Of a stretch of 15,405 nucleotides of DNA, positions 10,078 through 11,961 are shown one piece after another. The notes beneath the pieces are model-generated. The model saw only the letters and a program-made list of their open reading frames with translations. It searched no databases and was not told where the DNA came from. This DNA is from a virus (lineage: Duplodnaviria; Heunggongvirae; Uroviricota; Caudoviricetes). A program made the position numbers and the translations under genes. Where the stretch lies: the IMG/VR virus record IMGVR_UViG_2529292906_000015, positions 1 to 15,405 of that record. One strand, 5' to 3'. Position 1 is the first letter of the stretch; each line of letters begins with the position of its first letter.

Positions 10078-10230
10078 AGTTGCATAAGAAGTTGCTTTCT
10101 TTATCTGGAAATAATATATCCTCTAACGGGAAAGAAATAGAAAATGGTGACTTTAATGAACCCAACCCCCAATAAAAAGAGGTTGGGAATACTATGGTTA
10201 AATTAGAGTAAATATCTTGGATATCTAAAA

Positions 10231-10945
10231 TCAGGTTACTTTTACGCCTATAAAGGTGTAATCATCCATTATGTTTTTCTCAATCCTTTTTCTTAAACTA
10301 CTCGCAAAAGCTGTTGGTGAGAGCATTGTCTTCTCAGAAAACCTTGGTCTGACATCCCAATGCTTATAGGCACCATCAGTCATTGCATAGAGTTGAAGAT
10401 AGCCATTATAAATTAGCTGGCTAATCGGAAAAGACATTAACTCAAAATTCAAATCCGTTGTATTTGATAAAGCATTCGTTAGGACTGAAGATAGCCGTTC
10501 TTTATGATTTCTTAAATTACGTAATTTATGTTCACCAGAATCAAGGAGTTCTTGATATCTCGTTTGATCAGTGGTTAGCTGATTTAGTTTATTGTTTTTA
10601 TTGAAGTATACTCGGCAATCACCGGAATGACCAATTAACACTTCATTTTTTTGATCTGAACAATTGTTAAGGTTGTGGCAGTGCTAATATCTAAATTGTC
10701 AATTTCTTTTTTAGCTGAATGAAATGCACTTTCAATTGAGAAAAAGGAAGTGCCTAGCGTGTGTCTAATGCCACGAATGGCTGCATGAGATGCAAGCATT
10801 GAATGTTCAGAGGAACCAACCCCATCAGCTACTGCAAAGACAATGTTAAAATCGCTATCAAAAGATGGCGGTAAATAAAAGTCTTCATTTTCTTTTTTTG
10901 GGGTTGTTTTAGGCTAAAACATGCCATTTCAATTATGTTCTTCAT
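10231..10945 (-). pseudogene. PP2C-family Ser/Thr protein phosphatase, reading frame broken twice at A7/T7 homopolymers
   Basis: Three consecutive frames on the minus strand together give a PP2C-like protein: MKNIIEMACFSLKQPQKK | ENEDFYLPPSFDSDFNIVFAVADGVGSS... | NEVLIGHSGDCRVYFNK...AMTDG...DDYTFIGVKVT. Frame changes fall in the T-runs 10893..10899 and 10646..10652 (A-runs on the coding strand). GGAGG lies 7 nt before the ATG at 10945, which overlaps the kinase 3' end. Confidence 0.65.
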
Positions 10946-11723
10946 GATTTACCTCCCCCGTCACTTTTAAAAAATCTTCCAGTAACTCCCGTGTGCTTTG
11001 ATATCGTTCTTCAGGCCAATGTGCGCAACATTTTGCAATCAATCTTTTTAATTTTTCACTTCTTTCTGTGGGGTATATATCAGTGATAATTTTACCTGCT
11101 GCAAATATGTCGCTTTGAAAAGAAAAAAGACCGCTATCATGTATTTCGGGCGCTCGATATCCATCTGTGCCCATGTGATTAGGCTTAAATTTTGTTTTGA
11201 TTTCGGCCCGTAAGGTATCTCTGTCTTTTACTAGACCAAAATCAGATATTTTATACTTTCCATCGGCATAATAAAGTATGTTTCCTGGTTTTAAATCACG
11301 ATGTATATAGTTGTTTTCATGTATGGTGATAATTCCTTTTAAAATCTGAGTAACAGCAGACTTCCTCTCCGCGTAATTCATACCATTGCGGATGGCTTCA
11401 TATAAATTACACTCTGCCAATTCCATAACAAAATAAGGTTTATCACCATTTGTATTAAATAAAACTATTGGCGCTATTGAATCATAGTTTATTCTATTGA
11501 GAGTGCATTGTGTTTTGATCTCAACTAAAAAACGCTGTCTTAAATCAGTCAACTCTTTTATAGCGGTCTTGTCAAAGTCCGGGCAAGGTGAAAAGTATTT
11601 GCGAGCATATGTGGTCATGTGGGTCTGGGTTAAGTTATAGACATCAACCTTAAATACTTCGCCAAAACTCCCTTGTCCTAAACTGCGACCATCTTTAAGT
11701 AAATAATTACCGCACCGATCCAC
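10929..11723 (-). CDS. Hanks-type (eukaryotic-like) Ser/Thr protein kinase, 264 aa
   Basis: All core kinase motifs are visible: glycine loop LGQGSFGEV, the lysine in YARKYF, catalytic loop HRDLKPGNIL, DFG in ISDFGLV, and APE in YRAPE. GTG start at 11723 with AAGGGGG upstream. Very AT-rich coding sequence. Confidence 0.85.
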   Translation of the reverse strand: MDRCGNYLLKDGRSLGQGSFGEVFKVDVYNLTQTHMTTYARKYFSPCPDFDKTAIKELTDLRQRFLVEIKTQCTLNRINYDSIAPIVLFNTNGDKPYFVMELAECNLYEAIRNGMNYAERKSAVTQILKGIITIHENNYIHRDLKPGNILYYADGKYKISDFGLVKDRDTLRAEIKTKFKPNHMGTDGYRAPEIHDSGLFSFQSDIFAAGKIITDIYPTERSEKLKRLIAKCCAHWPEERYQSTRELLEDFLKVTGEVNHEEHN

Positions 11724-11961
11724 GGCGCCCCCTTAACTCTCAGTAATGGATTGATAAGACTGGAAAAACATGCATTACCTCCTTTTATACACGTTTGCTA
11801 TTTTTATTGCAATGCCTCACCTGTGGGCACTTAGAAAGGTGAGATTCTGATGAGTCTTTAACTGATTGAATTCGTTCCAATGTGGGAATCCCACATCGGG
11901 AGAACATTACCAATAGGGATAAAAACGATTTGTGGGAAAAGGGGAGTTAAGTAAAATTGCT

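Follow-up and report, generated by a model that had tools for sequence, protein, structure and literature searches.

Kinase-based immunity is already established in bacteria, with Stk2, PD-T4-6, KKP and MADS as examples, and the known kinase defences carry extra sensor or partner domains. Stk2 of staphylococci and Stk of phage 933W are reportedly abortive-infection kinases that are activated by a heterologous phage protein, and neither is known to require a PP2C gene next to it as part of its definition. PD-T4-6 is a single-gene Ser/Thr kinase defence (Vassallo et al. 2022, PMC9519451). KKP is the PfpC-PfkB-PfkA kinase-kinase-phosphatase module of Pf6, P2, P4 and Mu-like prophages (Guo et al., Nat Commun 2024, PMC11341870). 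The KKP kinases are toxic and its PP2C phosphatase is the antidote, and the Gp59 protein of T4 triggers the defence by inhibiting the phosphatase (PMC11341870). A second role of KKP concerns the phosphorylation state of MvaU (PMC11341870).

The locus analysed here is a stripped-down form, a two-gene family of ~1.6 kb in total that consists of a Hanks-type kinase gene followed by a PP2C phosphatase gene. It was found in a stretch of 15,405 nucleotides (IMG/VR virus record IMGVR_UViG_2529292906_000015, referred to as the window) which belongs to a defective Qin/DicB-type lambdoid prophage of E. coli whose integrase is truncated by IS1203. The features of the cassette and its boundaries are as follows.

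9798-9971, plus strand: DUF7167 backbone gene (Pfam PF23768), the left boundary of the variable site, outside the module and present in sibling prophages with and without the cassette
10060-11916, no strand assigned: inserted segment, replacing ~800 bp of backbone (small plus-strand ORFs) of module-less sibling prophages
10231-11803, minus strand: mobile unit, comprising 80 nt of upstream sequence and the two genes, the sole stretch with DNA homology (80%) to the copy in the E. coli P4-satellite hotspot
10231-10945, minus strand: PP2C/PPM Ser/Thr phosphatase gene, split as sequenced; 238 aa when repaired (WP_000789359.1)
10929-11723, minus strand: Hanks-type (eukaryotic-like) Ser/Thr kinase gene, 264 aa, GTG start, Pfam PF00069
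11728-11734, minus strand: Shine-Dalgarno sequence AAGGGGG, 5 bases 5' of the kinase GTG and kept in variants
11784-11812, minus strand: candidate sigma-70 promoter, found by eye
11964-12288, plus strand: hok/sok type I toxin-antitoxin backbone locus (Rfam RF01794; hokD annotated in relatives), the right boundary, outside the module

The closest known system is KKP, whose definition the cassette fails. The two are alike in being borne by prophages and satellites, in combining a Hanks-type kinase with a PF13672 PP2C in one operon, and in their occurrence on Gram-negative mobile elements that include P4. KKP, however, has three genes in the order phosphatase-kinase-kinase, whereas the cassette has two, kinase then phosphatase, with no second kinase in its flanks. 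PfkA is fused to a cold-shock domain (PF00313), proposed as a defining feature, which the cassette kinase lacks, and PfkB is fused to an FHA domain (PF00498), for which the cassette kinase gave no match in Pfam. At 795 and 717 bp, the cassette genes also fall below the KKP-defining filter of 900-1300 bp. It is the published description of KKP, in its genes, domains and gene order, that sets the cassette apart.

Likeness to the other defence kinases is confined to the kinase core, and no near full-length match to a PD-T4-6, Stk2 or MAD6 profile was found. MAD6, the MADS kinase, gave the best defence-kinase match in PADLOC and NCBIfam (E=1e-37), but its score of 70.6 bits against NF047741 compares with an NCBIfam cut-off of 460, only the core aligns (profile positions 54-246 of 659), and the cassette has no methylation-associated partner genes nearby. 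PD-T4-6 is likewise a kinase of E. coli mobile elements, and its best PADLOC model matches the kinase domain (E=1e-32); the match covers profile positions 16-202 of 327, however, and PD-T4-6 is a one-gene system whereas the cassette kinase always occurs with a PP2C. The resemblance to Stk2 is at the level of the kinase domain only (E=3e-25, profile positions 162-360 of 500). The PADLOC scan proposed in an earlier annotation made without database searches (the sequence-only reading) was thus productive for one gene of the two, since the kinase domain matched mad6, PD-T4-6 and Stk2 while the phosphatase had no match in PADLOC v2. No Stx phage was among the 15 records matched by the kinase in a tblastn search of 50,697 phage records (E<=1e-8), a collection that may or may not include 933W, and this search did not show kinship with Stk of 933W, one of the exclusion kinases that the same reading had cited. 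Searches of the accessible literature by accession and keyword found neither a paper nor an experiment on this two-gene family, and it is not described in DefensePredictor or in the paper on the P4 hotspot (PMC9122126).

The housekeeping pairs Stk1/Stp1, PknB/PstP and YegI/PphC have the enzyme superfamilies and the pairing of a kinase with a PP2C in common with the cassette, and the nearest solved structures for the pair are Stk1, StkP, PstP, tPphA and Stp1. The cassette kinase differs in having no PASTA or transmembrane sensor domain. Identity with YegI/PphC, the yegI/yegK-like outcome that the sequence-only reading had named as one to watch for, was checked and does not apply, because the kinase is only 18% identical to YegI (E=0.001), there is no meaningful alignment with PphC, and the cassette occurs in just 35 of 5426 complete E. 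coli genomes (0.65%), sporadically and always on mobile DNA.

The kinase ORF scored 110.3 bits against PF00069 in a Pfam profile search (cut-off 31.7), and the protein is 100% identical to WP_000373318.1 and identical to its orthologue in a closely related prophage. Kinase families are the only Pfam matches, so that the protein appears as a bare catalytic domain without a sensor, partner or DNA/RNA-binding domain. All of the core motifs of a Hanks-type kinase, as noted earlier by eye, could be located: G16-x-G18-x-x-G21, HRDLKPGN at 141-148, DFG at 161-163 and APE at 191-193, together with K42, E68, D205 and R240. These make up a complete catalytic set (G-loop, VAIK Lys, alphaC Glu, HRDxKxxN, DFG, APE, subdomain IX Asp and XI Arg), and across 44 family sequences G16/G18/G21, K42, E68, H141-R142-D143, K145, N148, D161-F-G, A191-P-E, D205 and R240 are invariant or nearly so. 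Judged by the catalytic-loop Lys, the kinase is of the Ser/Thr type. The AF2 model (pLDDT 89.2, pTM 0.87) has a bilobal ePK fold that matches PDB kinase domains in Foldseek with TM 0.70-0.77, and disorder is confined to residues 172-178 of the activation loop. By its motifs, the gene product is a minimal RD-type Hanks Ser/Thr kinase with predicted phosphotransfer activity. A secreted virulence-effector kinase of the NleH/OspG type was also considered and was ruled out, given that the nearest relatives in sequence and structure are Stk1, StkP and IRAK4 and that the activation loop is full; the presence of the pair in non-pathogens and on environmental plasmids likewise disfavours such an effector.

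The phosphatase gene starts within the end of the kinase gene, the two having 17 nt (10929-10945) in common, and the phosphatase is probably translationally coupled to the kinase through this overlap. The three fragments of the gene as sequenced have no Pfam match. Repair of the frameshifts yields a 238-aa protein that is 100% identical to WP_000789359.1, and this intact orthologue, which is present in 35 complete E. coli genomes, scored 41.5 bits against PF13672 (cut-off 24). Profile searches of the kind suggested beforehand therefore recognise both partners, the phosphatase by way of its intact orthologue, in agreement with the overlapping PP2C-like gene read from the letters. Among 43 phosphatase sequences D22 (in NED), D41-G42 (ADGVG), D191-G192 (TDG), D228-D229 and G109-D110-x-R112 are invariant. 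Based on residue positions in an alignment with tPphA and on the usual PPM motif numbering, D22, D41, D191 and D229 would be the metal-binding Asp residues of what we take to be motifs 1, 2, 8 and 11. The AF2 model (pLDDT 93.3) is a full-length PPM beta-sandwich with Foldseek matches to PstP, tPphA, MspP and Stp1 (TM 0.72-0.78). Pfam, the motifs and the modelled fold agree that the gene product is a PP2C, and its phosphatase activity is predicted.

The cassette occupies a variable site between the replication, DUF977 and DUF7167 genes and hok/sok (sok at 11964-12138, Rfam RF01794, 112.5 bits; hokD coding sequence at about 12133-12288). Its GC content is 36.3%, well below that of the left flank (51.0%) and of the right flank (51.7%). 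Both cassette genes lie on the minus strand, opposite to the replication genes and to DUF7167, hokD, DUF968, RusA and Q, which are all plus-strand genes. Elsewhere the same lambdoid site holds relBE, PDC-S39, QueH or IS3 as cargo; the match to PDC-S39, a PADLOC candidate, is full-length. Distinct composition, a variable site with alternative cargo and a conserved promoter-like element are the marks of a moron or of hotspot cargo, and the evidence supports horizontal acquisition of the cassette, an AT-rich moron in antisense orientation whose variable cargo site lies immediately upstream of hokD.

Most of what the sequence-only reading had said of this site agrees with these data. It had described a horizontally acquired, AT-rich moron with a kinase and a cognate PP2C, antisense to the flanking phage genes, and had placed it between the replication genes and hokD, where DUF977 and DUF7167 are now seen on the left and hok/sok on the right. 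Its hand-counted 25-40% GC inside and 50-60% outside was about right, its limits of 10080-11960 were accurate when set against the sibling comparison, and the relB-relE genes that it had placed in K-12 Qin are indeed found there at the equivalent position, immediately upstream of hokD. Its proposed association with the neighbouring Hok toxin is a different matter. A functional link between the cassette and hokD was considered and is not supported, because hokD is a backbone gene found both in prophages that carry the cassette and in those that lack it, and because the cassette also occurs in many contexts that have no hok; the adjacency is incidental.

The candidate promoter has a -35 element TTGCAA (11812-11807), a 17-nt spacer and a -10 element TATAAA (11789-11784). 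The TTGC of the -35 element and the entire -10 element are kept in a lambdoid variant of 92% identity and in the P4-hotspot variant of 80% identity, which suggests that 11784-11812 may serve as the cassette's own sigma-70 promoter. A consensus scan reported no canonical promoter or terminator, and its sites were no more numerous than in shuffled sequence; the candidate went unreported because the last base of its -10 element is A.

Kinase and phosphatase travel together. In 19 of 19 IMG/VR proviral loci and in a Pseudomonas locus (L006), the kinase gene lies directly upstream of the PP2C gene on the same strand, overlapping it or a few nucleotides away, and the order kinase-then-phosphatase is strict in every locus examined. 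The two families, which comprise roughly 100 clusters, are parallel in size and taxonomy. Both genes are under purifying selection (dN/dS 0.06-0.12 for each, with matching dS values). The E. coli carriers include prophages of the Shiga-toxin-producing serotypes O103:H2, O145:H28, O157:H7, O45:H2 and O121 and of pig ETEC; in E. coli O103:H2 12009 the two genes are ECO103_RS07240 and ECO103_RS07235. In an E. coli P4 satellite the pair sits between psu and int, and DNA homology between that copy and the window is limited to 10231-11803. The psu-int site of P4 satellites is a hotspot of antiviral systems (PMC9122126). On Acinetobacter plasmids the pair lies directly beside the Septu genes PtuA/PtuB, in an Enterobacter islet it adjoins TacA/TacT, and it is carried by a Vibrio mobilisable island with an integrase and Mob_Pre. 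In Aeromonas it occupies a small chromosomal islet, a neutral context. The isolated temperate phages Flotzy and phiES15 carry the pair co-oriented with late genes, and in these phages and in Xenorhabdus it is found in the late or lysis-to-terminase region. Conservation as a unit across mobile elements, which the earlier reading had put forward for checking, is thus seen in prophages (at other moron sites as well), satellites, temperate phages, an island and plasmids.

Relatives in the phage collection were found by the protein-level search alone; its 15 matches included Flotzy, phiES15 and Listeria and gut phages, and a search at the DNA level gave no match. A profile scan of genome contigs with the kinase alignment returned mostly generic kinases, since the HRDL and DFG patterns are too common, and the Pseudomonas locus was the sole family member recovered.

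The neighbourhoods of the pair (the P4 psu-int site, Septu and the lambdoid site that alternatively holds relBE or PDC-S39) favour a defence role, and the resemblance of the kinase domain to the defence kinases mad6, PD-T4-6 and Stk2 is counted on the same side, as are the strict pairing, the purifying selection, the sporadic distribution, the conserved promoter-like element and the precedent of KKP. The assignment rests on context and analogy because the phosphatase has no PADLOC match and the kinase matches only the generic domain. On these grounds the cassette is a credible anti-phage module, and it is somewhat more probable than its negation that the pair constitutes a minimal phosphorylation-based toxin-antidote or abortive-infection module which excludes competitors of its mobile element. 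Other observations weigh against it: co-orientation with late genes in Flotzy and phiES15 could equally mean that the pair serves lytic growth of the phage that carries it, some contexts, such as the Aeromonas islet, are neutral, and the consensus scan reported no canonical promoter or terminator.

If the pair works as KKP, Stk2 and other kinase-based defences do, a lysogen would make both the kinase and the phosphatase, and the phosphatase would continuously undo auto-phosphorylation of the kinase and phosphorylation of its substrates, leaving the cell unharmed. An infecting phage would then upset the balance, for example if a phage protein bound and inhibited the phosphatase or activated the kinase. 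The released kinase could phosphorylate many host and/or phage proteins, with growth arrest and aborted infection as the result. The pair would in effect be an enzymatic toxin-antidote module, from which the mobile element gains by shutting out competitors. It is presumed here, from the systems that served as models, that the lysogen expresses the pair, that the kinase is toxic and the phosphatase antagonises it, that a phage acts as trigger and that there is a defence phenotype.

A more specific form of the abortive-infection proposal is offered tentatively and is given slightly less than an even chance. The pair may represent a distinct minimal two-component phospho-switch family of abortive-infection systems, in which a bare RD kinase is the effector while a PP2C serves as antidote and also senses infection. 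Such a family would have an evolutionary origin apart from KKP, PD-T4-6 and Stk2, and it moves as a 1.6-kb cassette among STEC and ETEC lambdoid prophages, P4 satellites, islands of Vibrio and plasmids of Acinetobacter. If defensive, the pair would be a very tractable model in which to ask how infection is sensed through a balance of phosphorylation and through which substrates a phage is stopped. As it resides in prophages of major STEC serotypes and of pig ETEC, the cassette could therefore alter susceptibility to therapeutic or biocontrol phages.

Alternatively, the pair could be a regulatory switch for its element or host that sets the phosphorylation state of host nucleoid or transcription factors and so controls, in the lysogen, how the prophage is silenced or induced or how the host functions, with no part in defence. 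Reversible switches are classically built from a kinase and a phosphatase that counteract each other, KKP has just such a second role in its action on MvaU (PMC11341870), and the late or lysis-to-terminase location in Flotzy, phiES15 and Xenorhabdus would suit it. The plasmids, P4 satellites, mobilisable island and chromosomal islets that carry the pair, however, have neither a regulatory target nor a backbone in common with lambdoid phages, and the bare kinase has no sensor or DNA/RNA-binding domain, which makes this explanation unlikely. A pure addiction module, stabilising its element by post-segregational killing and having no anti-phage phenotype, appears still less likely. Such a function would account for the overlapping two-gene operon with its toxin-plus-antidote layout, for the occurrence on small plasmids and for the adjoining toxin-antitoxin loci (hok/sok here and TacAT in Enterobacter, with relBE at this site in K-12), but both partners look like stable globular enzymes (pLDDT 89 and 93) with no obvious labile antitoxin between them, and the P4 defence hotspot and the Septu neighbourhood point to defence. 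Addiction also overlaps with the defence interpretation because many toxin-antitoxin systems act in defence anyway. The least probable of these functions is that the kinase serves the phage against the host during lytic growth, in takeover or counter-defence, while the phosphatase limits collateral damage. The precedent is the T7 kinase, which reportedly disarms defences broadly (bioRxiv 10.1101/2024.12.20.629319), and the orientation of the pair with late genes in Flotzy and phiES15 agrees with it. In the window, however, the genes are antisense to all phage operons and have their own promoter-like element, the pair is also found in non-phage elements (plasmids and chromosomal islets), and the prophage integrase is truncated, yet the cassette of its relatives is intact and under purifying selection.

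Whether both partners of the proposed abortive-infection module are functional in this strain depends on the reading of the phosphatase gene, which has no uninterrupted frame in the window. It is broken by two -1 shifts, each from A8 to A7 on the coding strand, as follows.

10829-10945, 10635-10799 and 10231-10641, minus strand: phosphatase ORF fragments as sequenced, from the ORF list
10646-10652, no strand assigned: T7 run (A7 on the coding strand; 8 in relatives), first apparent frameshift and probable homopolymer under-call
10893-10899, no strand assigned: T7 run (A7 on the coding strand; 8 in relatives), second apparent frameshift and probable homopolymer under-call

The window was compared with two relatives that are 99.8-99.9% identical to it (L001 and L127), and all six single-base indels are homopolymer contractions, each one base short. 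They affect 4 of 4 runs of 8, 1 of 20 runs of 6 and 0 of 44 runs of 5 (the counts for 5- and 6-base runs come from the comparison with L001 only), and one A5 relative to L127. Besides the two phosphatase A8 tracts, the shortened runs of 8 are an intergenic G8 and an A8 in Q; the shorter runs that contracted are in the hokD terminator and in DUF968, and DUF968 and Q are also broken as a result. Substitutions are scarce: a single one occurs within 2.4 kb around the cassette, and the 1.8 kb aligned with L127 has none.

Because every run of 8 in the compared regions is contracted, as part of a window-wide pattern of homopolymer under-calling, the phosphatase frameshifts are very probably an artefact of homopolymer sequencing or assembly and not biological, and the module is therefore probably intact in the real genome. 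The sequence-only reading had spoken of cloning a repaired phosphatase, which implied true decay, and this implication was not upheld. It is improbable, though the two slippage-prone A8 tracts within one 717-bp gene and the frameshifts in the sequence as given would accord with it, that the phosphatase is truly a pseudogene in this strain, whether through real A8 slippage (as in a mismatch-repair-deficient lineage) or as a phase-variable switch, with the module decaying or the kinase acting alone. Such a history must contend with the identical loss of one base in every compared run of 8, including the intergenic one and that in Q, with the shortening of shorter runs elsewhere, with the uniform direction and the single accompanying substitution, and with the PP2C being intact in those relatives whose annotation flags were inspected, a product being given for every record shown. 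Were the frameshifts real, an intact kinase beside a dead phosphatase would argue against toxicity of the kinase. With the apparent pseudogene best read as a homopolymer artefact, the practical lesson is that gene decay is not to be read from uncorrected long-read assemblies.

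The prophage in the window is lambdoid and of the Qin/DicB type, with two minus-strand genes lying between DUF7167 and hok/sok. Its features, from the left end, are as follows.

Left end: truncated integrase and excisionase
Right of these: exonuclease, 823 aa
Next block rightward: ydfD, dicB (4724-4912, minus), DicF sRNA (5087-5138, minus), ydfABC
After ydfABC: CI-type repressor, Cro-like gene, YdaT-family gene
Left of the cassette: replisome organiser, DUF977, DUF7167 (9798-9971, plus)
10945 (ATG) to 10231, minus: PP2C phosphatase, starting 17 nt inside the kinase gene
10929-11723, minus: Hanks-type kinase, 264 aa, Pfam Pkinase
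Right of the cassette: hok/sok (11964-12288, plus), DUF968, RusA, antiterminator Q

The presence of dicB and of DicF (76.7 bits, Rfam) confirms a DicB/Qin-type early-left region. Positions 1-948 are the 3' part of IS1203, an IS3-family element (orfB, 1-888) whose ALIL frameshift pseudoknot at 1-72 is cut by the window edge. The prophage integrase (927-1671) adjoins IS1203 and is cut at 927/928, without about 125 C-terminal residues. Excision by this integrase is probably beyond the prophage. The immunity region (6180-7258) is unlike that of L001, a locus of E. coli 23CRST014 that is otherwise 98-99% identical. At 6307-6945 (minus) lies the gene for a CI/LexA-type repressor of 212 aa, part of which is an S24 peptidase, together with a divergent Cro-like ORF; the difference is a typical mosaic swap of immunity genes.

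When the window is aligned with sibling prophages in which the module is missing, the foreign segment comes out at 10060-11916. The GC content of the cassette is 36.3% versus 51.0% and 51.7% in the left and right flanks. A sequence-only reading had proposed an AT-rich insert with antisense kinase and phosphatase genes here, and its coordinates, kinase motifs, strand and composition are borne out. The insertion point (10059/10060) falls within a backbone gene of 58 aa in the siblings, so acquisition of the cassette truncated that gene, the start of which remains as a 34-aa ORF (9973-10077, plus). Homology between the lambdoid copy and the copy in P4-like satellites (80% at the DNA level) is limited to 11803-10231, a stretch that begins 80 nt ahead of the kinase start codon and ends with the phosphatase stop. 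Those 80 nt contain a conserved promoter-like element (TTGC-N19-TATAAA) and a Shine-Dalgarno sequence. An inverted repeat (CCCAACC-N13-GGTTGGG, 10161-10187) about 45 nt past the phosphatase stop, inside the insert, is possibly a transcript-end hairpin; it has no T-tail, and a terminator scan gave no call there.

The kinase is identical to WP_000373318.1 and scores 110.3 bits against Pfam Pkinase (cut-off 31.7). Its motifs (GxGxxG, K42, E68, HRDLKPGN, DFG, APE, D205 and R240) are invariant among 44 family members, and its AlphaFold2 model (pLDDT 89.2) has the canonical protein-kinase fold, with uncertainty confined to the activation loop (172-178) and the extreme C-terminus. Since the kinase is of the RD type and its activation segment contains threonines, control by activation-loop phosphorylation is plausible.

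The phosphatase gene is present in the window as three ORFs instead of one. Restoring two bases yields a 238-aa phosphatase identical to WP_000789359.1, which scores 41.5 bits against Pfam PF13672 (PP2C_2; cut-off 24) and has no match in PADLOC. By sequence, the solved structures closest to it are those of tPphA, PstP and Stp1, and PstP, tPphA, MspP and Stp1 superpose full-length on its AlphaFold2 model (pLDDT 93.3) with TM scores of 0.72-0.78. Residues D22, D41, D191 and D228/229 and the GDxR motif are invariant in 43 sequences, and the position of these aspartates in the tPphA alignment, with the usual PPM motif numbering, suggests that they bind metal. The 238-aa protein aligns only to positions 273-517 of PHROG phrog_5650 (565 positions, function not known), some phage members of which may be fused kinase-phosphatases or carry an extra N-terminal domain.

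Over 9700-12100 there is one substitution between the window and L001, the nearest complete genome, and the window lacks a single base at three places. A second reference locus, L127, is 99.9% identical over 13300-15100, the sole differences being at 13537 and 14640. The single-base indels are:

9746: G8 to G7, intergenic (versus L001)
10645: T8 to T7, phosphatase frameshift (versus L001)
10892: T8 to T7, phosphatase frameshift (versus L001)
12377: T6 to T5, hokD terminator tail
13537: A5 to A4, splits the DUF968 gene, 12729-13783 (versus L127)
14640: A8 to A7, splits antiterminator Q, 14161-14981 (versus L127)

Where the window aligns to L001, over some 11.5 kb, it is shortened at 3 of 3 homopolymer runs of length eight, 0 of 1 of length seven, 1 of 20 of length six and 0 of 44 of length five. 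Because all six indels are contractions within homopolymers, with one substitution alongside, the broken phosphatase almost certainly reflects under-calling in the assembly and not gene decay. True pseudogenisation, with real frameshifts in this strain, fits the homopolymer pattern less well and is improbable. Taken together, these contractions, seen against genomes that are 99.8-99.9% identical, suggest that long-read-type errors were left uncorrected across the whole source assembly.

Homology searches return small, parallel families of about 85 kinase clusters (255-265 aa) and about 100 PP2C clusters (238-263 aa), both only in Gammaproteobacteria (Enterobacterales, Vibrionales, Aeromonas, Acinetobacter and Pasteurellaceae). 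At every locus examined the two genes share a strand, the kinase gene coming immediately before the PP2C gene and either overlapping it or lying a few nucleotides away. This arrangement holds in 19 of 19 IMG/VR proviral contigs and likewise in further lambdoid prophages of E. coli (99% and 92% identity), E. coli P4-like satellites, a Vibrio island bearing an integrase and Mob_Pre, a Xenorhabdus prophage (adjoining terS/terL), an Enterobacter islet where TacA/TacT is the neighbour, an integrative island of Kosakonia at mutS, Aeromonas, Acinetobacter plasmids, one Pseudomonas locus and the isolated temperate phages Flotzy (Escherichia) and phiES15 (Cronobacter). Pairwise dN/dS is 0.06-0.12 for both genes and their dS values match, indicating that both are maintained and co-inherited; the pair is one mobile unit. 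Among 5426 complete E. coli genomes the cassette occurs in 35, always on the chromosome, and many of these are STEC (O103:H2, O145:H28, O157:H7, O45:H2, O121) or pig ETEC, on whose prophage biology it bears.

The homologous pairs of Flotzy (L129, 4001-5505) and phiES15 (L130, 4001-5520), with 35-39% kinase identity, lie between Rz and terS and between Q and the lysis genes (the stx slot of Stx phages), respectively. Both are co-oriented with the late genes, so orientation relative to phage operons is not conserved.

Several neighbourhoods of the cassette are of a defence type. In P4 satellites it sits between psu and int, a hotspot of antiviral systems (Rousset et al., PMC9122126) from which that paper does not describe the pair, and on Acinetobacter plasmids it directly adjoins a full Septu PtuA/PtuB pair. 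The lambdoid site is a cargo slot, as seen when 10060-11916 is compared with the equivalent sites in the sibling loci L103, L104, L106 and L127: most siblings carry small ORFs, K-12 Qin carries relBE, O6:K2:H1 strain C 691-04A an antisense DUF4209 protein matching PADLOC candidate PDC-S39 over its full length, WP7-S17-ESBL-01 QueH, and KN12-1 an IS3-family element. This slot just upstream of hok/sok may be an unrecognised lambdoid hotspot for defence or toxin-antitoxin genes. The functional link to the Hok toxin suggested from sequence is unsupported, since Hok belongs to the backbone, is found in prophages both carrying and lacking the cassette, and is missing from the other places where the cassette resides.

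KKP, a module of prophages and satellites, offers the best precedent for a mechanism: its two toxic kinases are neutralised by a PF13672 phosphatase, and defence is triggered when T4 Gp59 binds and inhibits the phosphatase (PMC11341870). The cassette itself falls outside KKP: it encodes a single kinase where KKP has two, lacks a cold-shock or FHA domain, has the opposite gene order, and its genes are shorter than the KKP size filter. Similarity of the kinase domain to the defence kinases mad6, PD-T4-6 and Stk2 is confined to the catalytic core, and the kinase is not a full-length member of PD-T4-6, Stk2 or MAD6. Direct comparison rejects a housekeeping YegI/PphC identity for the pair. Kinship with 933W Stk is not shown, no Stx phage being among the phage matches to the kinase at E<=1e-8. 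Both genes have only generic PGAP names, and no paper on the two-gene family was found in the literature searched; defence by kinases has precedents, as does a kinase-phosphatase module in a prophage, so the pair represents no new category.

Based on its neighbourhoods and the KKP precedent, we propose that the cassette acts by the KKP principle, as a minimal module of the enzymatic toxin-antidote or abortive-infection kind, for which kinase toxicity, a trigger and a defence phenotype are presumed. What the two enzymes are, how they are paired, that they are mobile and under selection, and where they lie are established by the data. We lean, with some reserve, towards a role in defence against phage. 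A switch that regulates lysogeny or the physiology of the host would suit the late-region placement in Flotzy and phiES15, and KKP has such a role too. Alternatively, the pair could be a pure addiction module, or the kinase could serve phage takeover or counter-defence like the T7 kinase. Each of these accords less well than a defence module with the variety of non-phage contexts or with the antisense placement and autonomy of the cassette. The cassette is a good, cheap candidate for experiment. In Aeromonas veronii (L101 and L102, 9590-10237) a DUF4760 gene directly follows the PP2C gene on the same strand; it has no PADLOC match and is possibly a third component in the Aeromonas sublineage.
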